Source: a virus (Duplodnaviria; Caudoviricetes). From it: a DNA stretch of 64,000 bases. Below the pieces are notes generated by a model. It was given only the letters and a program-made list of their open reading frames with translations, had not been told where the DNA came from and did no database searches. A program made the position numbers and the translations under genes. The stretch covers positions 1 through 64,000 of the IMG/VR virus record IMGVR_UViG_3300025986_000001; one strand, given 5' to 3'. How positions within the stretch are numbered: position 1 is the stretch's first letter; the number at the start of each line of letters is the position of its first letter. This document shows positions 9,109-37,941 of this stretch, one piece after another.

Positions 9109-9911
9109 GGCCCCAGCCTCCGGCCCTGCCGGGCCCGGTAGTCGACTTCAGGCATGGTGACGACCCAGCCGGCCTGCAGCCGGGAAATAGCCCGGCCGTC
9201 GAGGGTGTCAGCGAGCACGGCGATGCGCTGACCCAGCTCCTCTTCCCGCTCCTTGACCTTCTCAGCGCGCACGAACGGCAGGTTGCTGCTGGTGGCCAGT
9301 GGCAGCCGGTGGTGTGCGCGATGGTTGATCAGCCGGCTGGTGGCGTCGGCGGCCCGGCCGAAGTCCTGGGTGTTGTAGTCGCCCAGGTCGTCGAGCACCA
9401 CCAGGTCGGCGTGCAGCAGCCGGTGCATCAGCGCATCCGGGTCCCGGCCGCTGCCGGGCTGCATCGCGGCCGCGAAGTTGCGGTTGGTGATGAAGTACCA
9501 GCGGAAGTGCCGGGCCAGGTGAGCGTGGTGCAGCACCAGCTCGCGCAGCAGCACGATCAGCTGGCTGGTCTTGCCGCAGCCGATCGTGCCGCGCAGCATC
9601 AGCATCGGGTCGGCGCTCGGGTCGGCCTTCTGGCTGTCCGCCCACTCCTGGACGTAGCGGTAGGTCTGCGGCAGCCGGTCGAAGTCGAACTCGCCGTCGG
9701 CGTAGATGCTCAGCGCGCGCAGAGCATGCCCGGTCAGGTGCCGGACCGCTTCGTCCCGGTTGTACCAGACGTTGCCGCGCGGGTCGAGGATCTCGTCGTC
9801 GGTGGTGTCCATGAGCGCCGGATCCATGCCGCGGGCGCGCAGCCGGGCCGCCATGATGTCGCGGAAGACGTCCCCGCCGGCGGCCTTCTCGGATACGGCC
9901 TCGCCGCTCAT
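9105..9911 (-). CDS. DnaC/IstB-like helicase loader ATPase
   Basis: GTIGCGKT, LVVLDDLG, SSNL, ISRL; start MSGEAV by ATGA overlap. Confidence 0.85.
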   Translation of the reverse strand: MSGEAVSEKAAGGDVFRDIMAARLRARGMDPALMDTTDDEILDPRGNVWYNRDEAVRHLTGHALRALSIYADGEFDFDRLPQTYRYVQEWADSQKADPSADPMLMLRGTIGCGKTSQLIVLLRELVLHHAHLARHFRWYFITNRNFAAAMQPGSGRDPDALMHRLLHADLVVLDDLGDYNTQDFGRAADATSRLINHRAHHRLPLATSSNLPFVRAEKVKEREEELGQRIAVLADTLDGRAISRLQAGWVVTMPEVDYRARQGRRLGP

Positions 9912-10948
9912 CGCTGTGCTCCAGGGATGTTGTCGTCGTCGTAGAGGGCGTTCATGCCCGGCACCGCCACCGCGGCCGGCGCGTCGCCGGGGCGCCGGGC
10001 AGGGGCGCGGCCCAGCAGGCGCTGCTTCTCCTCGTGCGCCCGGGCGCTGAGAGTCGCGTACTTGGTGCGCAACGTCGGCATGCTCTTGATGTTGGCGTGC
10101 CAGAAGCTGTCCTTCTGGCACCACAGGATCGCCTTGCGGATCTTCTCGGGCTCCCGGCCATCCTTCTCGATCATCAGCCGGCACTGGTTGCGCCAGGTGT
10201 CGGTGACGTTCGGGCGCACCCCGTCGGGGTCGTTACCTGCGATCTGATCGGCGAGCAGGTCGCACAGCTCGACCACGATCGGGTCGAACACCCTCGGCTC
10301 GGTCCGCCGTGGCCGCCCACGGCGCGCTCGCGCCCGGGCTTCAGCGGGATGCTGCGCCACCGGCGGCGTCTCGCCCGGTTCGACCGCGACCAGTGCCACA
10401 CCCGCATGCGGGTCAGCCGGCGGGTTCTTGCGCGGGCGTCCCGGTGGCCGGGCGGGCTTCTTCTCCGGCTTCTGGTGGCCGTCCCAGCGGGTGGCCAGCC
10501 CCTTGGCGCCGCTACCGCGCCGCTGCTCGGCGATGCGCCGCTCCTGCTCGGCGGTGCGGTTGTGGTTGAGGATGTCGTGCAGGTAGACGTGCAGGTAGCG
10601 CGGCTGCGGGCAGCGCGGGCAGCCGTGGTCGGCCTGGTGCCAGAGACCGTCGGTCATCAGGGTCTTGGCGAACTGCGGTGGCAGGCCGGTGGCTTCGAGC
10701 ACCGTCTCGGGCACGATGTGCCCGTCGGTGCCCAACTCACGGGACATCCCGATGGCCGCGGCATGCAGAGCCAGCGTGGCCATCCGTTCGACGGGATCGG
10801 CGACGTGCGTGAGCTTGCCGGGCTCGGTGAAGAATCCGGCGGTCATACGTACGTGCGGTCGCGGGTCGGTAGCTGTCCGACGTCCGCGGGTCGGGTCGTT
10901 CGAATCCGCCTGCGGTACGAGCGCAGCAGGCATCGAAGAGACCGTCAC
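9908..10948 (-). CDS. phage replication initiator / replisome organiser
   Basis: C-terminal RLMIEKDGR...DSFWHANIKSMPTLRTKY domain; directly upstream of loader and helicase; AAGGAG before GTG 10948. Confidence 0.75.
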   Translation of the reverse strand: MTVSSMPAALVPQADSNDPTRGRRTATDPRPHVRMTAGFFTEPGKLTHVADPVERMATLALHAAAIGMSRELGTDGHIVPETVLEATGLPPQFAKTLMTDGLWHQADHGCPRCPQPRYLHVYLHDILNHNRTAEQERRIAEQRRGSGAKGLATRWDGHQKPEKKPARPPGRPRKNPPADPHAGVALVAVEPGETPPVAQHPAEARARARRGRPRRTEPRVFDPIVVELCDLLADQIAGNDPDGVRPNVTDTWRNQCRLMIEKDGREPEKIRKAILWCQKDSFWHANIKSMPTLRTKYATLSARAHEEKQRLLGRAPARRPGDAPAAVAVPGMNALYDDDNIPGAQR

Positions 10949-11154
10949 GGTGGGCTCCTTGGGGTCGTTGCTCTTGTGACGATCGCGCTGGCTTGAGGCC
11001 GCGCGTAAATACAAAACCTAATGTCAAAATGTCCGAATGGCAAGTGCAACATCGGGGTTTTCGGAAAAACCCCGATCGGGGGATCCAGCAGGCACTTCTT
11101 CCGAATTCTGCCACGACGTTGGCGGGCGTCCATCGTGATCTATACGATGGCGCC

Positions 11155-26756: not shown

Positions 26757-26968
26757 CGCTGCACCACCTGGACATTCTCGGCGAACCTGCGAATGGCGAA
26801 CGGGAGAACCTCACCATCCCGGTAGGCGCCCAGCACCTCGTGGCTGCTGATGACTTCCCAGCGCATCCACTCGAGGGCGGCAGCGTCGTCGGGCAGGTCA
26901 CGCTTCTGGACGTCCCGGGGAGCAAACGGATTTGCCAGCTCTGCCCTGATGAAGGTGTAGACGTTCAT
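26753..26968 (-). CDS. hypothetical protein
   Basis: MNVYTFIRAEL; coupled overlaps. Confidence 0.5.
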   Translation of the reverse strand: MNVYTFIRAELANPFAPRDVQKRDLPDDAAALEWMRWEVISSHEVLGAYRDGEVLPFAIRRFAENVQVVQR

Positions 26969-27180
26969 ACCTCGACCCACTCCCCCTCGATGCCACATTT
27001 GTCGGCGTGCGGACGCAGGGCCATCAGGCCCGGTGCCATGCCCGACATGAACTCGTACGTGCCGCACTTGGTGCAGCGCAGGTGCTGGTGTCCGCCGGCG
27101 TCCTGCTCCAGCCACACCTGGCCGGTCGCCGGCTTGCCGAGCACCTTCGACACGATCATCGGAAGCGGCTGGTCGCTCAT
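26965..27180 (-). CDS. Zn-finger hypothetical protein
   Basis: CTKC...HADKC. Confidence 0.5.
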   Translation of the reverse strand: MSDQPLPMIVSKVLGKPATGQVWLEQDAGGHQHLRCTKCGTYEFMSGMAPGLMALRPHADKCGIEGEWVEV

Positions 27181-27208
27181 CTGCTCTCCTTCGCGCGGGT
27201 GCAGCCGG

Positions 27209-27532
27209 TCATCGGGCATCCAGGCCGGCAAGCACAGCGCCCACGGCATCCTCCGCGGACGAGTAGACCGCCTTGGCGTCGACGCCGCCGGTCTCAGCCA
27301 GCTGTGGGCGCATCTTGACGTGCGGGTGGTCGGGGCGGATACCGAGCCAGACGGAGTAACCATTCATCACAACCCAGCCGCCCGGCAGGTCGCCGTTCCA
27401 GCCCGCGTCGACGAACTTGATGCGGTAGCCGATGACGGGGCCATCGATCAGGTAGTCCTGCGCGTCGGGGTTGGTGGACGCGCTGCGGGCAGGGACGGCC
27501 TGCACGCGAGGGTCTTCGAGTACGGAGGTCAT
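27209..27532 (-). CDS. paralogue family A, divergent member
   Basis: TSVLEDPRV...AEDAVGAVL; GAAAGGA SD. Confidence 0.5.
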   Translation of the reverse strand: MTSVLEDPRVQAVPARSASTNPDAQDYLIDGPVIGYRIKFVDAGWNGDLPGGWVVMNGYSVWLGIRPDHPHVKMRPQLAETGGVDAKAVYSSAEDAVGAVLAGLDAR

Positions 27533-27623
27533 GAGATTCCTTTCGTTGTGGATCAGGCCCGCGGTGGCGGGTCTTGCTTTCAGCGGCTGACAACAGCCTA
27601 GGGTATTACTGCGACGAGAGCGA

Positions 27624-30545
27624 CTACGCCTGCCGGCTCGCCATCGCCGCCTCGTCGGCAAGCACCCGCGCCAGCTCGGCGGCCCGCAGCGCGGCCATCT
27701 CGGCCAGCTGCGTTGCCGAGACGCCCTGCTCCGGGGTGTGCGTCTCGGTCATACCGGCGGGCCGCTGGATGAGCCGGGCCGCTGCACGCCGGCCGGCCTC
27801 GACGCCGTCCGGGGTCAGCGTCCAGCTACCGCTGGCCGGGCCGCGGTCGATCTTCTGTACCCGGTCGGACGGCAACGGCTTGCTCCCGCCGACGGTGGGG
27901 TCGAGCTGGTCGGCGGCACGGGTGATGGTCGATTCCACCGGCGGCTTGCCCCAGCCGGGCGCCCGGCCCCACGCCTCGTGGGTGTCGATCTCCTTGCGGC
28001 TGATGCCGGGGTTCTCGTGCAGGATCGCCAGGACCACGTCGCGGGCGGCCATCTTGCCCTGCGGCTGCGCCGGGTCGGCCGGCTGCACAGCCTTGGGCCG
28101 CATGGCGGCCAGCGCGGCGCCCATCGTCATCGCCGCTTCGTCGTCCTCCTCGTCCTCCTGGGCGTCGGCGAGCAGCCGGCCGATGTTCGGCCGGAAGCTG
28201 CCGTCGGGCTGGTAGTCGCGGGCCAGCATCCACATGTCCCAGACCCCGGTGTCCTTCATGATCTCGACCGTTTCCTGCGAGATCCAGGTCAGCGGGTCGT
28301 CGATCTGCAGCGCCGGCTCGGCGCCCTTGCCCCACAGCGTGGTGTACACGGTGTCCTCGGCCGCCGGGTCGCGGCTGACGAACGCGGCGCGCAGCGGGAT
28401 CTGCGGCGCGCCGGGGGCCTGCCGCAGGCACATGCCGGGCAGCAGCGGCAGGTCGGCGGTCGAGTAGTTCTGGTTGCGCCCGCCGGCCAGCCGGCTGGAC
28501 AGGTCGCCGGTGCGGTACATCGTCAGCGACGTCAGGTTGATCAGGTCGCGCAGTGTCGAGTCGCCGAAGTCGGCCAGGCCGCCGCCCTGGCTCAGCAGCT
28601 TCGCGCCCATCGCGGCGGCGCGCTGGAACCGCACCATGTTGACGAAGTCCACCAGGAAGCCCTGATCTTTGGCCTGGTCGTGGAACTCGTCCCAGATGTG
28701 GGCGATCGGCTGGCCGTAGACGCCGATCTTCCCGGTCTGCGGGTCGTGGGTGTTCCACTTGCTTTCGCCGGCCACCTTCGCGCCGTACCGGTTGGTCTTC
28801 GGCGCGGCCGCCAGCTTCGTCTCGCGGCGCTGCCGCTCGGCGTGCAGGAAGGCCAGGATCATGCGCCGGTGCCGCCGGGTGAACCCGATCGGGAAGATCC
28901 CGGCGAAGTCGGCGTAGTCGACCAGCCGCTTCGGGTCCACCAGGATCGGGAAGATGCAGGCCATCAGCAGGTTGCACAGGTAGCGGGTGGCGTCGGCGCC
29001 CTTGCCGCCGCCGGTGGTGCCCACGACACCGCCGCCGAACGGCTGACCCGGCTTGTACAGCACCTCCTGCAGGTCGTCGCCGGTCAGCGCGCGTCCCAGG
29101 TAGCCGTGGCGGGTGCCGTCGGCGTCGACCTGCACCGCCGTCTCGGCGCGCCACGGCACGGCGTCGCCCAGCCGGGCCCGGTCGGTAATCATGATCATGA
29201 AAGTGTTCTGCCGGCCGCCGGGGTTGTCGACCAGCGAGATGGCCGCCGCGTCGTGCTTGCCGTCGAACAGCACGGCCACCAGCCAGTCCTTGGCCGCCTG
29301 CAGCGGCGAGACCATGCCGCCGCGGCCGACCAGCGCGCCCGGCTCGGCGGTGCCCAGGTACTCCCAGCCGATCCGCACCCGCTCGCCGGTCGTCGGGTCC
29401 GGCGCGGTGATCTCCCGCGTCTGCGCCGGGGCGATCTTCGTCCGGGTGATCTGCAGGAAGTTCTCCCGGGCCGTCTCGAGCCGGCCGATGCGCTCCCACT
29501 CGATGCGCATCCGCTCACCCTGGTGCTCCGGGTTGTCCTCGTCGTACGCGCCGACATCGGCCATCTGCTGGCGCAGCGCCGCCTCCGCCAGCATCGCCTG
29601 CGCCTCGACCTCGGCCTGCCGGGCCCTGGCCTCCGCCGCCCGGCGGGCGTTGTCGATCGCCAGCTGGCGGATCCGCTGCCGTTCGGCCCACAGCCGCTCC
29701 CAGTGCGCCCGGTTGGTCCACCAGGCCAGCCCCAGCCCGAGCAGGGTCAGCACCGCCCACTGCACGCCGCTGGCCGCGTCCAGACCGGCCAGCGCATCCA
29801 GGGCGCCGGTGGCCGCCAGGAAGACGCCGGTGCTGGCGGCCGCCCGGGTCACCCACAGGCCCCGCTCGCGGGCCTTCTTCGCGGCCCGGCCCTCCAGGCC
29901 CTGCTTGCGCAGCCGGGCCCGGATCTTCTCGACGTAGACGGCCAGCAGGTAGCCAGCGACCACACCGGCCACCGTGACCACGCTGGCCAGCGCCGCGGTC
30001 TGCAGTGCGCCGGTCATGTCGACGGTGTAGACGACGCCGACCTCGACGGCCACGCTCGCGGCCAGGCTGGGCAGGTGACCCTTACCGTCCTCGGCCAGCT
30101 GGGCCAGCTTGGCCGGCGCGCCGGCCCGGGTGTCACGGACCGCCGTCATCGCCGCCGAGGCCCGGATCCTCTCGGCGTACTGCATCTTCTTCTGCGCCCA
30201 CAGGTTGGCGACCCAGGCCAGCTGCCGCTGCCGGCCGACGGCGATTGGGTCGTCGTCGGTGTCGTCCAGCGGCACCAGCGCCAGCAGCTGCCCGTCGACC
30301 GGGCAGTGCTTGGCCTTCGGTTCGGTCCGCGGCGCGATCACCCACTCCGCAGTGGTGCAGGCGGCGGTGATGCACGCGTACAGCTTCCCGTTGACCTGGT
30401 AGGTCTGCTTGTCAACGGGAAGCTCGACGGCGTGCTGCTCCAGATTGCCGTTCTTGTCGCGCCAGACGTCGGACTTGTTCGCGTTGCCGGGAATCGGGGG
30501 CAAGGGCCGCTCGGTGCGGGGCATCGTCGCGGTCGACATGATCAT
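27624..30545 (-). CDS. traB: TraB-like FtsK/SpoIIIE conjugal DNA translocase
   Basis: N-terminal TMs and coiled coil; GTTGGGKG Walker A variant; IWDEFH Walker B; C-terminal wHTH-like domain. Confidence 0.75.
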   Translation of the reverse strand: MIMSTATMPRTERPLPPIPGNANKSDVWRDKNGNLEQHAVELPVDKQTYQVNGKLYACITAACTTAEWVIAPRTEPKAKHCPVDGQLLALVPLDDTDDDPIAVGRQRQLAWVANLWAQKKMQYAERIRASAAMTAVRDTRAGAPAKLAQLAEDGKGHLPSLAASVAVEVGVVYTVDMTGALQTAALASVVTVAGVVAGYLLAVYVEKIRARLRKQGLEGRAAKKARERGLWVTRAAASTGVFLAATGALDALAGLDAASGVQWAVLTLLGLGLAWWTNRAHWERLWAERQRIRQLAIDNARRAAEARARQAEVEAQAMLAEAALRQQMADVGAYDEDNPEHQGERMRIEWERIGRLETARENFLQITRTKIAPAQTREITAPDPTTGERVRIGWEYLGTAEPGALVGRGGMVSPLQAAKDWLVAVLFDGKHDAAAISLVDNPGGRQNTFMIMITDRARLGDAVPWRAETAVQVDADGTRHGYLGRALTGDDLQEVLYKPGQPFGGGVVGTTGGGKGADATRYLCNLLMACIFPILVDPKRLVDYADFAGIFPIGFTRRHRRMILAFLHAERQRRETKLAAAPKTNRYGAKVAGESKWNTHDPQTGKIGVYGQPIAHIWDEFHDQAKDQGFLVDFVNMVRFQRAAAMGAKLLSQGGGLADFGDSTLRDLINLTSLTMYRTGDLSSRLAGGRNQNYSTADLPLLPGMCLRQAPGAPQIPLRAAFVSRDPAAEDTVYTTLWGKGAEPALQIDDPLTWISQETVEIMKDTGVWDMWMLARDYQPDGSFRPNIGRLLADAQEDEEDDEAAMTMGAALAAMRPKAVQPADPAQPQGKMAARDVVLAILHENPGISRKEIDTHEAWGRAPGWGKPPVESTITRAADQLDPTVGGSKPLPSDRVQKIDRGPASGSWTLTPDGVEAGRRAAARLIQRPAGMTETHTPEQGVSATQLAEMAALRAAELARVLADEAAMASRQA

Positions 30546-30638: not shown

Positions 30639-31166
30639 TCAGCGGCGCCCTGCGTCGCGCAGCAGCGCCGGGCCGGCGCCGGTGGCGCGCTCCGCGTCCT
30701 GCACGTCACGCATGGTGGCCAGCGCCTGGAACGCGGCGGCGTTCAGCGCCTGCACCAGCACGGAGTGCTCGTGCACCGCGACCACCAGGTCGGCGGTGTG
30801 CGAGGCGACCGCGCTGGCCGCGTCGGTGGCGACCAGAGTCGCCGTCGGCGCCTGGTAGAGGTTGCTGACCTCGTCGAGGTTGCTCACCAGAGCGTCGAGC
30901 GCGTCGGCCGTCTTGCTCAGTGGGATCAGCTGCTCCCCCAGCGTGGCCAGGTCGGTGTTCAGGTTCGCCATTTCCAGGCCGATGAGATCGAGAACGCTGA
31001 AGGCCGCCTGGCTCGCCGGCACCTGCCGGGCGAGCGGGCGAGCCGGCAGCTGACCGGTGGCCCCCGCCGTCGACCCGCCGGCGGCGGGTCGAGCCGGGGC
31101 GAGGGCGGTCGGCCCCGGCGTAACCACGGGGGCGTTGTCGATGCGGGGAACGACGTCAGTGCTCAT
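30639..31166 (-). CDS. transfer-region helical protein
   Basis: Ala-rich helical ORF directly upstream of traB. Confidence 0.55.
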   Translation of the reverse strand: MSTDVVPRIDNAPVVTPGPTALAPARPAAGGSTAGATGQLPARPLARQVPASQAAFSVLDLIGLEMANLNTDLATLGEQLIPLSKTADALDALVSNLDEVSNLYQAPTATLVATDAASAVASHTADLVVAVHEHSVLVQALNAAAFQALATMRDVQDAERATGAGPALLRDAGRR

Positions 31167-31180
31167 GATCTTCTCCTTCC

Positions 31181-32461
31181 TCAGGCCCCGGCCTCGGCAG
31201 CGTTGGCGAAGACCTCGCCGCTGGCACCTTCGCGGTGCACCTGCTGCAGATGTTCCTGGGCCGGCTGCAGCGACACGAGCGCCTGCTCGCCCAGCTGGAT
31301 CGCCGTGGCGTTGTTCTCCCCGACCAGCCGCAGCCCCCTCTGCAGGACCTGCGCCATCCGGCCGGCTTCAGCCAGCAGCTCCCAGACCACCATCGGCACC
31401 GGGTAGATACCGGCCAGGCTGCGAATGCGGTGCAGCCGGCGCGCGACCACCCGCTGTGAGCCCTGCAGATCCGGCAACTGCCGTTCGACGCTGGCCAGCA
31501 GCGGCGGGATCGGCGCGAACAGCTGCAGGATGAAGTCCAGGTTGGTCTCGCCCTGCGGGCCCCGCCGTGGCGGGGTCTCACCGGACGGCAGCACCGTGGT
31601 GCCGTCTGCGGTCATGACATCTCCTTCGATGATTCGCTCGCCCGGGCCGGCAGGTCCAAGCGGCAGGGCCTCGTCGGCGTCGAGTACAGCCGCCGCCGGC
31701 CCACCGGTCACAACGGGATCCGCCAGGGGTGACCCGGCAGCGCCCGGCTCGTACACGAAGTCCGGCTCCGGGCCGTCCAGCGCCTCGGCCGCGAAGTCCT
31801 CGGTACCGCGCTCGTCCGGCTCGGGGCTCTGTTCGTCCGGCTGGGCGCTGCGCTTGCCCGGCCGCTGTTGTTCCTGCCACTGCCGCCAGCCGGCGCGGGC
31901 GCCTTCGGCGAAGCCGGTCAGGAAGTTCCAGAGGTCCCGGAAGAACGCACCGATCGCCGGGTAGGTACCGGTGATCTTCTCGTTCGCGCGGGCCATCTTA
32001 TCGTCGAAGAGCCTATACCCCGCCTTGGACTTCGCGACGGTGTCTTTCAGGAACTCCCACGGGTTTCGGACGGAACCGTCCGGCCGGTCCGGCTTGTCCC
32101 CGTCACGGTTGTTGTCGATCCAGTCCCGCAGCCGCTGCCGGTGCTCCTCCAGCAGCGCCGAGCGGGCCTGCGCCCGCTGCTTGAGGTCCGCCAGCACCTG
32201 CGCCGCGTCGGCGGCCAGCTGCTGGCGGCGTTCGGCCAGCTGCTCGGCGGTCAGCCGCGGCCGGCCCTCGAACCAGCCGGGCTTGTCCCAGCCGGACTTG
32301 ATGAACGCCTGCTCGATGCCGACCGCCAGGGCGGCGATGATCCCGATCACCGGGCCGCCCAGCAGGAAACCCGCGCCGATCGTCAGCGCGGCCGCCTTCT
32401 TCTCCTCGGGGGCCATCCCCGGCGAGCTGGTGCTCGCCGGGGGCGGCGCGGTAACGGTCAT
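31181..32461 (-). CDS. transfer-region membrane / coiled-coil protein
   Basis: N-terminal TM, coiled coil, acidic linker. Confidence 0.6.
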   Translation of the reverse strand: MTVTAPPPASTSSPGMAPEEKKAAALTIGAGFLLGGPVIGIIAALAVGIEQAFIKSGWDKPGWFEGRPRLTAEQLAERRQQLAADAAQVLADLKQRAQARSALLEEHRQRLRDWIDNNRDGDKPDRPDGSVRNPWEFLKDTVAKSKAGYRLFDDKMARANEKITGTYPAIGAFFRDLWNFLTGFAEGARAGWRQWQEQQRPGKRSAQPDEQSPEPDERGTEDFAAEALDGPEPDFVYEPGAAGSPLADPVVTGGPAAAVLDADEALPLGPAGPGERIIEGDVMTADGTTVLPSGETPPRRGPQGETNLDFILQLFAPIPPLLASVERQLPDLQGSQRVVARRLHRIRSLAGIYPVPMVVWELLAEAGRMAQVLQRGLRLVGENNATAIQLGEQALVSLQPAQEHLQQVHREGASGEVFANAAEAGA

Positions 32462-32465
32462 GGGA

Positions 32466-33317
32466 TCAGAACACTCCGTTCAGGACGTCGGCGCCGTCGG
32501 CGGTGGCGCCGGTGATCGCCGCCAGCGCGATTCCGCCGAAGATGAACACGGCGCCGATGCCGAAGATCGCCGCGGTGCGGGCCAGCTTGTCCGGCACCTT
32601 GTCGACCCAGATGTCGTAGGCGCCGGCGACGATGGCGCCCAGGCCGGCCACCCCGATGCCGGTCCGCACGATGGCGCGGATGCCCGAGGGCAGCTGGGAG
32701 ATCAGCGCCGTGTCGGCGTAGGCGATCAGCGGGATGATCACCAGACCGGCCAGCAGCAGCACGCCGAACGAGAACCAGTTCCACTTGTTCTTGTGGTTGG
32801 TCGCCGCGTCCGCCCGCTTGACGATCATGAAGGCGTAGATCAGGGTGACGATGCCCATCGCCGCGGCGGTCAGCCCCTGGCCGATGCCCTGCGGGTTCTG
32901 CAGCAGGCCGACCACGGCGGTGCCGCCGATCGGCAGCAGCGTCGGCGTCCACAGCGCGGCGGTGCGCGCCTCGTGGTCGGGCTGCTTGTCCGCCAGGTCA
33001 CGGATCATGCTGATCAGCAGGGCGACACCGTGCCAGCCCAGCGCCAGCGTGACCACCGCGGTCAGGTTGCCGACGAGCGCGCCGACACCGGCGCGGCCGC
33101 CCAGGCCGATCAGCCAGTGGATGAAGGGGATCATCGCGACGGTCAGCGCGAGGCCACCGATCGCGTAGAGCACGAACGCGCCCCAGCGGGCGTGTGAGCC
33201 GCGGTCCTTGTCCCGCATCTTCGGCAGGATCTTCTTGGCGGTCGTGACGCAGAAGATCGCGATCAGCAACGCGATCAGTCCGGTCTGGTGGGCGTTGATC
33301 CAGCCCAGGATGTTCAT
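32466..33317 (-). CDS. polytopic membrane protein (spread/transfer-like)
   Basis: About 8 hydrophobic segments; internal repeat DKQPDHEAR / DKVPDKLAR. Confidence 0.7.
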   Translation of the reverse strand: MNILGWINAHQTGLIALLIAIFCVTTAKKILPKMRDKDRGSHARWGAFVLYAIGGLALTVAMIPFIHWLIGLGGRAGVGALVGNLTAVVTLALGWHGVALLISMIRDLADKQPDHEARTAALWTPTLLPIGGTAVVGLLQNPQGIGQGLTAAAMGIVTLIYAFMIVKRADAATNHKNKWNWFSFGVLLLAGLVIIPLIAYADTALISQLPSGIRAIVRTGIGVAGLGAIVAGAYDIWVDKVPDKLARTAAIFGIGAVFIFGGIALAAITGATADGADVLNGVF

Positions 33318-33376
33318 GATCAGACTCTTTTCCTTGATGGTTCAGGGGTTGGGGTTGTTCTTGCGACGCACGAAAC

Positions 33377-33895
33377 TCAGGCGCTGTGCCCGGCCAGGTA
33401 GGCCATGCCCAGCGCGATCAGCAGGACGCCGGTCGCGACGCCGGCCTTGATGCGGGTGTCGGTGCCCTTGACGATCAGGTAGCCGGCGCTGTTCCACAAC
33501 GCCCGGCACAGCCCGGCCGCGGTCATCACCGTCCAGATGATCCAGTTGGCGGCCTCGCCCTTGCCCGGCGCGAGCCGGGTCCAGGCCAGCACCGGCGTCA
33601 TCGCCTCGACCGCCCAGTCGCTGCCGGCCGCCGAAGCGGCCGCCTGCACCTGCGCGGCCCGCAGCTCCTCGGCCAGCGCCGCACCCAGCCCGCCTCGCGG
33701 CGGCGGGGGCGGCGCGTACGGCTCCGGATTCGGCGCCGTACCTTGATCTACGAGCCTCAGATGTGGTACTCGCGCGCCCGCGGGTGCCCCCGGGCACGCG
33801 GATTCCGCCCCTTTTCGGGCCTCGAATCCGTGTTCCCGGGCAAGATCTGGGCGATGCACATGCGCACGCACATCGTCAAAGGGCTGCGCGCTCAT
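33377..33895 (-). CDS. membrane protein, transfer operon
   Basis: Two C-terminal TMs. Confidence 0.55.
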   Translation of the reverse strand: MSAQPFDDVRAHVHRPDLAREHGFEARKGAESACPGAPAGARVPHLRLVDQGTAPNPEPYAPPPPPRGGLGAALAEELRAAQVQAAASAAGSDWAVEAMTPVLAWTRLAPGKGEAANWIIWTVMTAAGLCRALWNSAGYLIVKGTDTRIKAGVATGVLLIALGMAYLAGHSA

Positions 33896-34109
33896 CGGTC
33901 ACACCTGCCTCTCGGTCGGTCAGTTCGATCAGTTCCCGGGCCACCCGCTCGACCGTGTTGTCGTCCGCGCGGGCGAAGGTGGCGCGGTAGTAGCGGGCCA
34001 CCGCGGCGAGGATTTCGCGGCCGTTGCCGGCCTCCTCCAGGTCCTTGAGCAGCCGGGCCTGCCGGCCCCGCCGGCGGGACGCGGCCCCGCCGGCGGGGCG
34101 CTTGGTCAT
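33876..34109 (-). CDS. small hypothetical protein
   Basis: MTKRPAGG; ATGA overlap. Confidence 0.5.
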   Translation of the reverse strand: MTKRPAGGAASRRRGRQARLLKDLEEAGNGREILAAVARYYRATFARADDNTVERVARELIELTDREAGVTDERAAL

Positions 34110-34513
34110 TTCCGTTGCCACGCGTACTTCTCCTCGTGGTCGTCGTAGGCGACCGGAACCCACAGGAACGAACGTTTCCGCAGGTCAGGCCAGTCGTCGG
34201 GGATGTAGGGGGTACGGCCACCGGTGATCTGCTCATCCTGCTGCGCAGGTAGCGGAGTGACTAGCAGCGCGTGGTCGTCGATGTCGGTGCGGCGGATCCG
34301 GTAGGCCCGGATCAGCCAGTCGAAGGTCCTGGCCAGGCGGGCCGAGGTGGGCCGAGAGAACTCCCCGCCGCGCAGATCCAGGTGCATCAGCGCGGGGGTG
34401 ATGGTGCTCGGTGTCACGTTCGGGGCTGTCAGCGGCGCCCCGTCGATGCGGGCCAGCTGCACCAGATACGGCAGCGGCCGGTCCTCGTCGTATAGATGGT
34501 TTTCTCGGCGCAT
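34106..34513 (-). CDS. hypothetical protein
   Basis: GGAGAG SD before MRRENHLY. Confidence 0.55.
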   Translation of the reverse strand: MRRENHLYDEDRPLPYLVQLARIDGAPLTAPNVTPSTITPALMHLDLRGGEFSRPTSARLARTFDWLIRAYRIRRTDIDDHALLVTPLPAQQDEQITGGRTPYIPDDWPDLRKRSFLWVPVAYDDHEEKYAWQRK

Positions 34514-34541
34514 CCTTGGCTCTCCTCGACGTTTCCCCAGG

Positions 34542-34916
34542 TCAGGCCGCCTGGGGCAGTTCGGGTGTGCGACGCGTGTGCGTGCGCACATCGGGCAGCT
34601 GGGGCTGCTGTACATCGACGACTACGCCCTCGAGCACCGGGTCGACCACGTAAGTGGAGATGGCCGCGGCGGTGGCCAGAACGGCTACCGCGCCGCCGAG
34701 AACGATCAGGAAGACCGGGCTCATCTGCAGATTCGGGACGTGTTGGGCCTGAAAGTAGAGGCCGGCCAGCGCCGTAAGGACTCCCTGTAGCAGGGCGCCG
34801 TACACAGCGTGACGGACTCGGGTCAGGCGACGGATCAGCGACTTCATGGAGTTGTCTCGCAATCTTGGGGTTGTTGCACGGGGTTGTTGCTCTGGAGGGT
34901 GGGACCGGCGGGTCAT
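34542..34916 (-). CDS. two-TM membrane protein with C-terminal C..C..H..C
   Basis: Hydrophobic segments; start may be 34847. Confidence 0.5.
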   Translation of the reverse strand: MTRRSHPPEQQPRATTPRLRDNSMKSLIRRLTRVRHAVYGALLQGVLTALAGLYFQAQHVPNLQMSPVFLIVLGGAVAVLATAAAISTYVVDPVLEGVVVDVQQPQLPDVRTHTRRTPELPQAA

Positions 34917-34936
34917 GACTCCCGCCGGCCGGTGGG

Positions 34937-36256
34937 TCAGTTGGCGACCTGATCCGTCTCGTCGTCTCCGGGACGGATCAGGTTCTGGATACCGGCCTCG
35001 ACGCCGAGACGGCCGGCGTGCGCCTTGCTGATGCCGAGACGCTTACCGATCTCCGCGTAGGAGACGGGAGACGTCCCGGACCGCAGAGACGCGACCTGGT
35101 GCAGGAGACGGGCGTCTCCCGCTCCCGTCTCATTCGTCGTCTCTGCCAGCGGCCCAGGAGACGGGAGCCGGCGAGACGGAGACGGAGACGCGGTCAGTGC
35201 GGCCGTCTCGGAGGAGACGAGGGACGGGACGACGTGCAGGCGCTGCTGCACGCGAGGCGTCTCCGTCTCCAGCAGTTCGGCCTCGACCGTCTCCACTGCC
35301 GGCCAGACCTTCGGCTTGCCGGACATCTTCCAGAGACGACGATCCTCGACCGCCAGAATCGGAGACGAGAGACGGTAGCGGGTGGCGTGCTTGAGCGAGC
35401 ACCAGGTGTCCCACGGGCACAGGATCCAGCTCATCGCCGAAAACTTCGGTGCCCGGGCGTCGACCAGGCCCTTCTCCCGCAGCCGCGCACGGTGCTTGTA
35501 GGCGGCCTGCTTGCCCCAGATCAGCACGCCCATGGTGCTCATCAGGGCCACGATCATCGCTGGTGCCCACTTGGCCACCATGGCGGCGTCCACCTCGACG
35601 GTGTCCGTGCGGGCCAGGTCCTGCGTCAGCTCGAAGATCGAGTGAGAGAGGATGAAAGCCGCGTTGAGCAGGATCAACGCGGCCAGCAGGAGCCGATGGC
35701 CGGCGGTGGAGTCACCCTCGATGCGGGTCTTCTCGTAGAGGGTTGCGGTCTTCCAGATACCGCCCTCGAAGGCCAGGGCCAGGGCCAGGGCGACTCCGTC
35801 GGGCAGGCTCAACGGCTCAGCGACGCCCGACTTGATCGTGAAGATGGCAGACACGACCAGCGGCGCGGCCAGCGGCAGGGCGCCGAAGGTGCGGTTGAAC
35901 CAGACCCCGGCGACTCGCAGCCACATGGGCAACGGGGCGATGACGTCATCGCCGGGTTCCGTCTCCAAACCGCGAGACGAGCTGCGGCGCTTGGTCGCGG
36001 CGGCCTGAGACGCCCGCTCCTGCGTCTCACGCTGCTCCTGCTCTCGGCGGAGACGGACGAGACGCTCCTGCTCGGCGCGCGTCTCGGCGGAGACGACGCG
36101 TGCGCGCCGCCAGGCAGAGAGACGAGACGCCGTCCGTCCCATAGGAGACGGCGTTGCGTCTCCGGGGGACGCCATCGGCGTCTCCGACGAAGCGCTCGGA
36201 GAGACGCCGAGCGTCTCCTCGTCTCCGTCTCGGTCTTGGGTGGGGGCGTTGTTCAT
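34937..36256 (-). CDS. Spd-like / DUF2637-like membrane protein with C-terminal HTH
   Basis: Coiled coil, four TMs, SYAEIGKRLGISKAHAGRL HTH; first gene of the transfer operon. Confidence 0.7.
   Translation of the reverse strand: MNNAPTQDRDGDEETLGVSPSASSETPMASPGDATPSPMGRTASRLSAWRRARVVSAETRAEQERLVRLRREQEQRETQERASQAAATKRRSSSRGLETEPGDDVIAPLPMWLRVAGVWFNRTFGALPLAAPLVVSAIFTIKSGVAEPLSLPDGVALALALAFEGGIWKTATLYEKTRIEGDSTAGHRLLLAALILLNAAFILSHSIFELTQDLARTDTVEVDAAMVAKWAPAMIVALMSTMGVLIWGKQAAYKHRARLREKGLVDARAPKFSAMSWILCPWDTWCSLKHATRYRLSSPILAVEDRRLWKMSGKPKVWPAVETVEAELLETETPRVQQRLHVVPSLVSSETAALTASPSPSRRLPSPGPLAETTNETGAGDARLLHQVASLRSGTSPVSYAEIGKRLGISKAHAGRLGVEAGIQNLIRPGDDETDQVAN
34955..35374. repeat. GAGACG/CGTCTC hexamer cluster A (23 copies by hand count)
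   Basis: Both orientations, inside the 3' part of the CDS. Confidence 0.9.
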
Positions 36257-36436
36257 GAGACGACCGTACAACACCGCCGAGAAAGTTTCTAGCAGGAGTC
36301 ACAAATTGCTCAACATTTCTGAGACGATGAGACGGGAGACGACGCCGTCTCATGAGACGGCCGAGGAGACGCCTTGCGTAGCATCACCGATCTACCCCAC
36401 TCGCCCTACCGACTCTGAGACGCCGGAACTCGTCTC
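35960..36436. repeat. GAGACG/CGTCTC hexamer cluster B (26 copies by hand count)
   Basis: Both orientations, in the 5' part of the CDS and its promoter region. Confidence 0.9.
36257..36291 (-). promoter_or_regulatory. putative leaderless promoter TAGAAA-N17-TACGGT
   Basis: -10 element separated from the ATG by exactly one CGTCTC hexamer. Confidence 0.45.
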
Positions 36437-36444
36437 CTCTACTC

Positions 36445-36511
36445 GCCTGACCCACGGCACACGAAAGCCCCCGGCTACCAACCGGGGGCTTTCGTGTGCC
36501 GTGGGTCAGGC
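36445..36511. terminator. perfect 30-bp inverted repeat
   Basis: GCCTGACCCACGGCACACGAAAGCCCCCGG-N7-complement; overlaps the stop codon of 36506. Confidence 0.8.
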
Positions 36512-37066
36512 AGCGCGGCGGGCGGTCGGCCGCGCCTGGGTCGCCAGCTCGTGGACCCAGTTCCACCATGAGACGCCGGCGAGCACGTCGGGGAGGCTGT
36601 CGTCGTATTCGACCTTGACGCGGTGGCCGGCGTCGTCCATGTGCATGATCACCAGTCGAGCATTGTCGATCATCCACCAGTCGGCGCGCGGCCCGAACGG
36701 GGCCTCCCCCAGGATGTTCAGCGCCGGCCGGGGGAGCGTGACGATCTGCTCGCCGGCGGCACGGTTCCACCGGTCGTTCCACTGCACGAACTTCTGGTAC
36801 TGCGTCGGAGGCTCGTCGACGACGCGGACCCGCTCGACGCGCACCCCGCGGGCGGTGAGCGCACGCACATTGGCGTACCACCGGACCAGCCAGGGCGAGT
36901 CGGTGGCCGGCCGCGGGGTGCCGGCGCAGAAGGCGGCGTACAGCAGGTCTTCTGCGCCGACGGCGTAGCCGGGCTGCTGTTCCCACCGCCAGGCGGTGGC
37001 GGTGGCGGCGGTGATCTGTTCGTCGAGGACGGTGCCGACGTCGTCGTCGGCCAGTTCGTAGCGCAC
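36506..37066 (-). CDS. DUF6879-like protein
   Basis: AWRWE.Q..Y, VERVRVVDEPPTQYQ, GEQI, DWWMID. Confidence 0.75.
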   Translation of the reverse strand: MRYELADDDVGTVLDEQITAATATAWRWEQQPGYAVGAEDLLYAAFCAGTPRPATDSPWLVRWYANVRALTARGVRVERVRVVDEPPTQYQKFVQWNDRWNRAAGEQIVTLPRPALNILGEAPFGPRADWWMIDNARLVIMHMDDAGHRVKVEYDDSLPDVLAGVSWWNWVHELATQARPTARRAA

Positions 37067-37083
37067 GATGACCTCCGGTTGGG

Positions 37084-37941
37084 CTAGTGGGGCACGGCGC
37101 GGCGGGCCGCGCCGATCAGTTCTGCGGCCGCGGTCCCGGTGACCGCATCGTTCCAGAGCCTGTCGGTGAGCAGGTGGTACTGGGCGACCCGGTCGTCCTG
37201 CAGTTCTTCGACGTCGCCGACGTGCAGCTCGATGTAGATCCGGTCGTCGACGATTTCGTAGGCATTCGCGGCGAAGGTATCCAGGAAGCGGTCCTGGGGC
37301 AGGATGCCGAGCCGGATGTTGGGAAGATCGATGACCGACTCCAGGCGGCTGAGCTGCCCGCGCATGATCTCAGGACTGAATCGCCAGGTCCGCAGCACCG
37401 CCTCGTCGAGCAGAACCTCGAACTGCCGGTGGGTGTCGTAGACCAGCAGGCCGCTGGACTGGCGTTCGGCCACGGCCGCGGCCAGGTCGATGCGGTACTG
37501 CTCGGTGTCCTGGTCGATGTCGGGGGTCGTGAGCGCGTCCATGTGCCGCAGCATCGCCGCGGAGTATGCCGGGGTCTGCAGGAAGCGCGGGACGAACACC
37601 TTCTCGTAGAAGCGGTAGCGGGTCGCGCTCGCCAGGACCTGGGTGTAGGACTTCTGCTGCTGCACGCGGCCGGAGAGCAGGTCGTCGTGGTAGCTGCGGC
37701 GCAGCGCGCGTGCCTGCTCGAGCATGGCCGTCCACTGCTGCAGAGACCCCGGCGGGGCGTCGACGATGCGCGCCCAGTCCCGCAGGTCGTCCTCGGTGGG
37801 CAGTTGCCGGCCGGTCTCGATCTTGCTGACCTTCGAGGGCGGCCAGCCGGCGTCGGCGGCCAGGCTCTTGCTCAGCATCGCGCCGCGCGCCGCGCGCAGC
37901 CGGTCGCCGAGTGGGTTGGCAGGGTTCGGGGTTGTCGTCAT
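37084..37941 (-). CDS. Xre HTH regulator with DUF5753 domain
   Basis: SKVSKIETGRQ, VPRFLQTPAYS, LDEAVLR, RGQLSRL. Confidence 0.85.
   Translation of the reverse strand: MTTTPNPANPLGDRLRAARGAMLSKSLAADAGWPPSKVSKIETGRQLPTEDDLRDWARIVDAPPGSLQQWTAMLEQARALRRSYHDDLLSGRVQQQKSYTQVLASATRYRFYEKVFVPRFLQTPAYSAAMLRHMDALTTPDIDQDTEQYRIDLAAAVAERQSSGLLVYDTHRQFEVLLDEAVLRTWRFSPEIMRGQLSRLESVIDLPNIRLGILPQDRFLDTFAANAYEIVDDRIYIELHVGDVEELQDDRVAQYHLLTDRLWNDAVTGTAAAELIGAARRAVPH

Follow-up and report, generated by a model that had tools for sequence, protein, structure and literature searches.

A dense GAGACG array in the spdB2-like gene of a putative actinophage and its predicted reader, the C-terminal helix-turn-helix of the same gene

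Introduction

Why does a single membrane-protein gene of a tailed phage carry dozens of exact copies of one 6-bp word, and which protein reads them? The question arises from a 64,000-nt stretch of DNA (the window), positions 1 to 64,000 of IMG/VR record IMGVR_UViG_3300025986_000001. A preliminary description of the window proposed that the protein, which carries a C-terminal helix-turn-helix (HTH), binds an array written into its own gene and anchors the replicon to the membrane, or alternatively that the array is the transfer locus of a TraB-like protein encoded nearby. The locus bears on a long-open question, namely how Spd proteins move plasmid DNA through the Streptomyces mycelium.

Results

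The phage and its hexamer array

The IMG/VR record (130,757 bp, 93% complete) encodes a terminase large subunit, an O-like initiator, DnaB, a tyrosine recombinase, DnaE, and 30 tRNAs, and its nearest DnaE matches are actinophages. The 131-kb record is a putative uncultured phage of filamentous actinobacteria. In full-contig coordinates, the 30 tRNA genes lie at 80285–95705 and the tyrosine recombinase at 81779–82867, which fits a temperate or plasmid-like state. Two ORFs make up the terminase large subunit (126424–129381 of the contig; L102:15425–18379), and the first of them ends in a LAGLIDADG-like stretch.

Counted on both strands, GAGACG/CGTCTC occurs 49 times within 34937–36436, with 30 GAGACG and 19 CGTCTC on the plus strand. 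The earlier count of about 49 is exact: 23 copies lie in 34955–35374 and 26 in 35960–36436, and the intervening 35375–35959 holds none, as had been stated for the membrane-coding stretch. The window contains 84 copies in total, 49 of them in 34955–36436. The rest of the 130,757-bp contig contains 72, or 0.84 per 1.5 kb, in agreement with the single chance copy estimated previously. Clustering of 49 copies versus 0.84 expected corresponds to a Poisson log10 p of about −67. In a 6-mer scan, this cluster is the strongest of the contig, and no other 6-mer is comparable.

The coding sequence, whose ATG is at 36256, holds 40 hexamers, and the upstream DNA holds nine. The coding copies fall into five frame/strand classes (12 ET, 5 xD, 8 RL, 11 xSx, and 4 xVS), so the copies do occupy both orientations and several frames and spill into non-coding DNA, as described before. 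The 3' array of 23 hexamers in both orientations covers the region coding for the linker, the HTH, and the tail (34955–35374). The 5' coding array of 17 hexamers covers the region coding for the N-terminus and the coiled coil (35960–36231), and the upstream non-coding array of nine spans 36257–36436. The membrane core (residues 123–248; 35513–35890, minus strand) is hexamer-free; the core peptide would permit only three.

Selection on the DNA

We recoded the gene 5000 times, keeping the peptide and using the phage codon usage. The recoded sequences contain 3.85 hexamers on average and 12 at most, versus 40 present. Synonymous shuffling of the gene's own codons gives 13 hexamers, with a maximum of 23. 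All 12 ET dipeptides are encoded as GAG ACG, versus 22 of 59 elsewhere. TCT, which makes up 2% of the phage serine codons, is used 15 times in the array gene, and CGT is used 12 times. Outside the core, the hexamer is present at 40 of the 49 positions where the peptide permits it. The recoding and shuffling tests bear out the earlier claim that selection acts on the DNA of the array gene, not on the peptide.

Peptide selection and tandem duplication as sources of the array are ruled out by these tests, by the rare codons, by the non-coding copies, and by the flanks of the hexamers, which are random and without consensus. The spacing between copies is not fixed. An RNA-level function is rejected because the hexamers occupy both strands. 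Between homologues, the sites turn over, with 50 of the 107 aligned sites occurring in one sequence only. What the homologues conserve is how densely exact hexamers are packed; no repeat unit is kept.

The array gene and its protein

The array gene (34937–36256, minus strand) is spdB2-like and encodes a 439-aa protein (phrog_10376) that matches pSVH1 SpdB2 in HH comparison (prob 92, E 6e-7). The family profile matches pSG5 SpdB2 (prob 97.7), and profile searches return 181 relatives; PF10935 (DUF2637) is matched by 16 of the 88 sampled. A Pfam search of the 439-aa protein finds no family, PF10935 included, but a missing PF10935 match is a weak criterion, because the SpdB2 proteins of pSG5 and pJV1 also lack one. 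On the strength of these profile comparisons, we assign the product to the known SpdB2/DUF2637 family of spread proteins, an identity absent from the preliminary description.

The protein is predicted to consist of a disordered N-terminus, a coiled coil, three to four membrane helices, a disordered linker, and a C-terminal HTH. In the AlphaFold model, a long helix (residues 38–99) is followed by four helices (127–261), the disordered linker, and a three-helix domain (379–423). Hydropathy at a cut-off of 1.5 gives three clear membrane segments (123–146, 184–211, and 227–248); the fourth (about 153–170) falls under the cut-off and rests on the model and homology. The weakness of the fourth helix matters, because the helix is needed to keep both protein ends cytoplasmic. 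Of the architecture described earlier, the HTH and three membrane helices stand, the putative coiled coil corresponds to the long helix of the model, and the fourth membrane helix is weak by hydropathy. The HTH (residues 379–423; 34988–35122, minus strand; recognition helix SKAHAGRL) is assigned from the structure model and structure comparison. It matches the DeoR DNA-binding domain (prob 0.99, TM 0.73 by target) and an HTH_24/MarR-like domain (TM 0.77). Foldseek of the whole model gives nothing at E 0.001, with HTH-level matches only. A two-copy complex prediction for residues 45–325 scores 0.00, which is evidence neither way.

Alignment of homologues suggests a candidate leaderless promoter (36257–36291, minus strand) composed of TAGAAA, a 17-nt spacer, TACGGT, one hexamer, and the ATG. 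The hexamer at 36257–36262 is indeed positioned between the putative −10 (TACGGT) and the ATG, as first noticed. In all eight aligned GAGACG-type homologues, TAC(G/C)GT lies 6–7 nt before the ATG, and CGTCTC overlaps or abuts it. A promoter consensus scan of the locus found none, and the candidate promoter is below its threshold. A perfect, terminator-like 30-bp inverted repeat (36445–36511) separates the locus from the upstream gene. Together with a smaller hairpin directly after the stop codon (34900–34935), it brackets the array gene.

Neighboring genes

Between the array gene and traB lie co-oriented small and membrane genes (30639–34916, minus strand), which are unannotated and Spd/TraA-like by position. 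The traB-like gene (27624–30545, minus strand) encodes a 973-aa TraB/FtsK-like DNA translocase that contains Walker A/B-like motifs and, at its C-terminus, a winged-helix-like region. It is the only motor recognized in the module. The protein matches the profiles of FtsK, YukB, and EccC (E 0.002–0.009); it has no Pfam or PHROG match and no tblastn match among cultured phages. Two profile scans of viral contigs with the family alignments found no relatives, and a scan with TraB found two. The order from array gene to traB is kept in the related loci L002, L003, and L005 (L-numbers denote related loci). The earlier statement that the array gene heads a traB operon holds for this conserved gene order, but for the order only; a hairpin follows the stop codon.

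Upstream, an XRE-DUF5753 regulator and a DUF6879 gene (36506–37941, minus strand) are conserved in L001, L002, L003, and L005, and the pair may be the regulator of the module. In L024, a GntR (TraR-like) gene replaces the pair upstream of the array gene.

Arrays across the family

We scored 102 family loci, many of them close kin, by the −log10 p of the best hexamer, and 85% pass a threshold of 10, versus none of 171 neighboring long genes (maximum 6.8). Close homologues contain 41–56 GAGACG copies each. Distant homologues use other words, namely CRGGAC (L005), CGGARC (L006), CGGACA (L021), and CGACC (L022), and the words of Streptomyces and Kitasatospora elements are GGWCCG, GAGACC, CGAACC, TGAGAC, and GGAACG. 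Array copies extend into non-coding DNA. In the Streptomyces clade, the arrays occupy the 3' linker-coding region and the stretch that follows the stop codon.

The plasmids pJV1 (L008:926–1915) and pSN22 (L106:4261–5018) carry GTGAGC arrays in spdB2-type genes, and pWTY27 (L108:3974–5071) carries a CGCGAACA-type array in its spdB2-type gene. The pJV1-type SpdB2 has no detectable homology to the family profile (prob 0.8) and its only link to the family is that its relatives are annotated as DUF2637. The hexamer scan found no array in the genes of pSVH1, pSG5, pFP11, pIJ101, and phage Hiyaa, and among 30 further Dactylosporangium-family loci, only six pass a −log10 p of 10. The array trait is common but not universal in the family. 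Therefore, spreading can work without an array. In a Streptomyces plasmid (L012:478–1674), a second cluster, GCGCACC in about 15–20 copies, lies away from the spdB2-type gene and possibly represents iterons.

The word follows the C-terminal HTH

In 49 loci with both genes, a shared word is predicted by similarity of the HTH (the last 75 residues, including some motif-encoded ones) with an AUC of 0.999, versus 0.868 for the membrane core, 0.745 for TraB, and 0.698 for the TraB C-terminus; the 49 loci are not independent, 24 being close kin that share one word, and the TraB calls of the Streptomyces loci are BLAST-based, so that some may not be the cognate pump. Each homologue's own hexamer thus co-varies with its HTH, a relationship that the preliminary description had suggested looking for. 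The word changes about 11 times on a quick core tree, which left out 17 rows whose core the search pattern missed. The nearest-neighbor HTH gives the right word for 47 of the 49 loci, and the two misses are words seen once. In the out-of-sample Micromonosporaceae-family loci L113, L133, and L141, the word is that of the nearest HTH.

Individual pairs illustrate the pattern. This phage and L002 share GAGACG with TraB proteins only 35% identical; this phage and L005 have TraB proteins 61% identical, yet differ in word and C-terminal domain. The core of L077 is 0.94 similar to the GGWCCG group, but L077 has another HTH and the word GAGACC. Homologous HTHs pair with words one step apart (GGACCG/GGAACG and GAGACC/TGAGAC). 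Linkage contributes to the HTH–word signal, because the array and the HTH adjoin in the Streptomyces clade. In the phage clade, one and the same word, in keeping with the HTH type, is found before and after the core; the promoter of the GAGACG group carries it too. Therefore, the signal is not simple hitch-hiking of a swapped 3' half. Judged from this co-variation, the predicted reader of the word is the C-terminal HTH of the gene's own product rather than TraB.

Against the co-variation counts that L096–L100, whose HTH is a different one, show weak GAGAC(G) enrichment. Within one HTH type of the Dactylosporangium-family loci (L096–L100, L114, L116, L119, L120, and L123), weak GAGAC goes with TNNYGSR, weak CGGGAC with TRDYGRK, and no enrichment with TNDYGRK. 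These loci form a possible fine-scale recognition series.

Discussion

A proposed docking array for the gene's own protein

We propose that the hexamers are binding sites for the HTH encoded by the same gene. Such binding is very probable. Given binding, a role in spread or partition is likely; this purpose is proposed because of the known role of the family and the neighboring pump. As a whole, the reading that we favor, with reasonable but not strong confidence, is that of a cis-encoded docking array for the gene's own protein, which would fasten the element at the membrane so that it can be spread, coupled to TraB, or partitioned. We infer that this protein oligomerizes and tethers DNA to the membrane.

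A 6-bp word is met by chance every 1.8 kb. With a word of such low information, specificity would have to come from the close packing of about 50 sites within 1.5 kb. Single hexamers would be weak and common, and a membrane oligomer would grip firmly only where dozens cluster. Sites placed wherever the peptide tolerates them would form one high-avidity docking patch on the element's own replicon. Because site and reader share one gene, they would be inherited and swapped together as a private tag of each element, and only within the gene would recombination leave the two together. Insertion into the membrane during translation would bring the new protein beside its own gene. The patch would then hold the phage DNA, a circle derived from a prophage or resembling a plasmid, against the membrane or septum near the TraB-like pump. 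In the GAGACG clade, the hexamer on the start point would additionally let the protein repress its own promoter. We see about an even chance that a large part of the SpdB2/DUF2637 family consists of such one-gene self-address modules. Each would be an integral membrane protein with an exchangeable HTH and with tens of copies of the matching word in its coding sequence, and phages and plasmids of filamentous actinobacteria would thereby tether no DNA but their own at the membrane or septal transfer site.

Alternative explanations

Binding of the protein to its own array could instead serve regulation or sequestration, either through autorepression, by promoter occlusion and road-blocking, or because a toxic, pore-forming protein is titrated on its own DNA. 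In the sequestration variant, the array would be a DNA antidote, and loss of the element would free the protein. The hexamer at the −10 in eight of eight GAGACG-type homologues, with 7–15 copies upstream, fits this explanation, as do the pores formed by pSVH1 SpdB2 and the growth-inhibition pocks caused by spd genes (PMC4447253). However, the Streptomyces-clade arrays are 1.5–2.5 kb from the start with no copies upstream, L005 and L006 have one upstream copy each, and fifty sites far exceed the need of a repressor. We consider this explanation unlikely. The autoregulation proposed earlier is consistent with the GAGACG clade. Many arrays of the family lie only at or behind the 3' end; therefore, autorepression is not the general purpose.

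It is improbable that a factor acting in trans, from the host or elsewhere, such as a nucleoid protein or a restriction-modification enzyme, reads the sites, or that they arose incidentally from peptide selection or slippage. BsmBI recognizes GAGACG and BsaI recognizes GAGACC, and the linkers are of low complexity. However, within a single host genus, the words differ in keeping with the HTH encoded in cis, and the by-product variant is contradicted by the recoding and shuffling tests, the use of TCT and CGT, the non-coding copies, and the random flanks. Golden-Gate cloning of the array genes of this phage, L023, L061, and L073 needs recoding that would destroy the array; we take the match to these enzymes as coincidence.

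The array could also be the clt, the loading site of the TraB-like pump, as the preliminary description had allowed. In known clt loci, an HTH recognizes a short motif that is repeated, and we found no separate clt of direct repeats downstream of the traB-like gene (26800–27624), elsewhere in the contig, or in L002, L003, and L005. However, the mapped clt of pJV1 and pWTY27 differ from the arrays in the spdB2-type genes of these plasmids (PMC3583192). Moreover, the copies here occur in either orientation, at least 4.4 kb away from traB. The word does not track TraB: in 206 of the 393 pairs of loci that share a word, the TraB-like proteins are unrelated, and the TraB proteins of L051 and L073 have a similarity of 0.91, but the words differ. 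Since the word tracks the C-terminal HTH and not TraB, this alternative is much weakened, and we regard it as quite improbable.

A replication origin or iteron field inside the gene, as in the linker-coding region of lambda O, is barely plausible despite a mildly AT-rich stretch at 36270–36325, because the phage has a separate O-like initiator (9908–11014, 24 kb from the array) along with DnaB, and pJV1 and pSN22, which are rolling-circle plasmids equipped with rep genes of their own, carry like arrays in spdB2; in addition, the hexamers are irregularly spaced, and a search for iterons inside the initiator gene found none.

Implications

The protein family is already known. The literature searched contains no description of hexamer arrays in spdB2/DUF2637 genes, although an older remark on spdB2 repeats may exist. 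SpdB2 has so far been taken as a nonspecific DNA binder, and the arrays give a sequence-specific, testable handle. The easiest test systems are pJV1, pSN22, and pWTY27, classic laboratory plasmids with arrays apart from the mapped clt. The arrays would account for the marking of a single replicon by a 6-mer of low information, and they are a case in which coding DNA departs from codon bias so as to hold a second code. Recognition rules could readily be studied on the dozen or more HTH/word pairs, which, if the genes are self-address modules, would also form a natural table of helix versus hexamer. An array together with a TraB-like pump in a 131-kb tailed phage points to spread of phage DNA between hyphal compartments. 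If the docking patch works as proposed, the genome of this phage would spread through hyphae without virions.

Comparison with known systems

Sites in the binder's own gene are familiar from lambda, whose ori lies inside gene O, and Noc/NBS, RacA/ram, and p16.7 of phi29 tether DNA to the membrane or the pole. To our knowledge, in none of the systems of lambda O, Noc, RacA, and p16.7 is a binder that is an integral membrane protein paired with a dense array inside the sequence that encodes it.

A known homologue is SpdB2 of pSVH1. This membrane protein forms oligomers and pores, interacts with TraB, is reported to bind dsDNA without sequence specificity, and is required for intramycelial spreading; putative homologues on actinophages have already been noted (PMC4447253). 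The two proteins share a homologous membrane core, a putative N-terminal coiled coil, a length of about 400–440 aa, and a gene position upstream of traB. Unlike the gene described here, pSVH1 spdB2 has no array, and the C-terminal domain of its product is of another type.

The TraB/clt system resembles the present one in its element-specific short repeated words and in a membrane protein with a C-terminal helix-turn-helix encoded in the same module, binding being predicted here. In Streptomyces plasmids (pSVH1, pJV1, and pWTY27), clt is a 50–200-bp region of 4–9 direct repeats of 7–9 bp at the end of traB; that of pJV1 consists of CCGCACA repeats just behind traB, and that of pWTY27 is TGACACC, behind the tra gene (PMC3583192). 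In contrast, the array of this phage is built from a 6-mer over 1.5 kb, in a 30:19 ratio of orientations and without flank consensus, and it lies in another gene, 4.4 kb from traB.

Gbn (SCO1839) is a small actinobacterial HTH protein that reads a 4–6-bp word one site at a time (PMC9239103). It has 8–10 sites in its own promoter region and, unlike this membrane protein, is a soluble, chromosomal, genome-wide binder.

SpdA2 of pIJ101 binds a motif (sps) inside its own gene, and loss of the protein or the site lowers segregational stability (PMC4170104). As in the present locus, the sites of the protein sit in its own gene. However, SpdA2 is a small soluble protein with 1–3 conserved 12-bp palindromes shared between plasmids, whereas here about 50 non-palindromic, element-specific 6-mers accompany a membrane protein.
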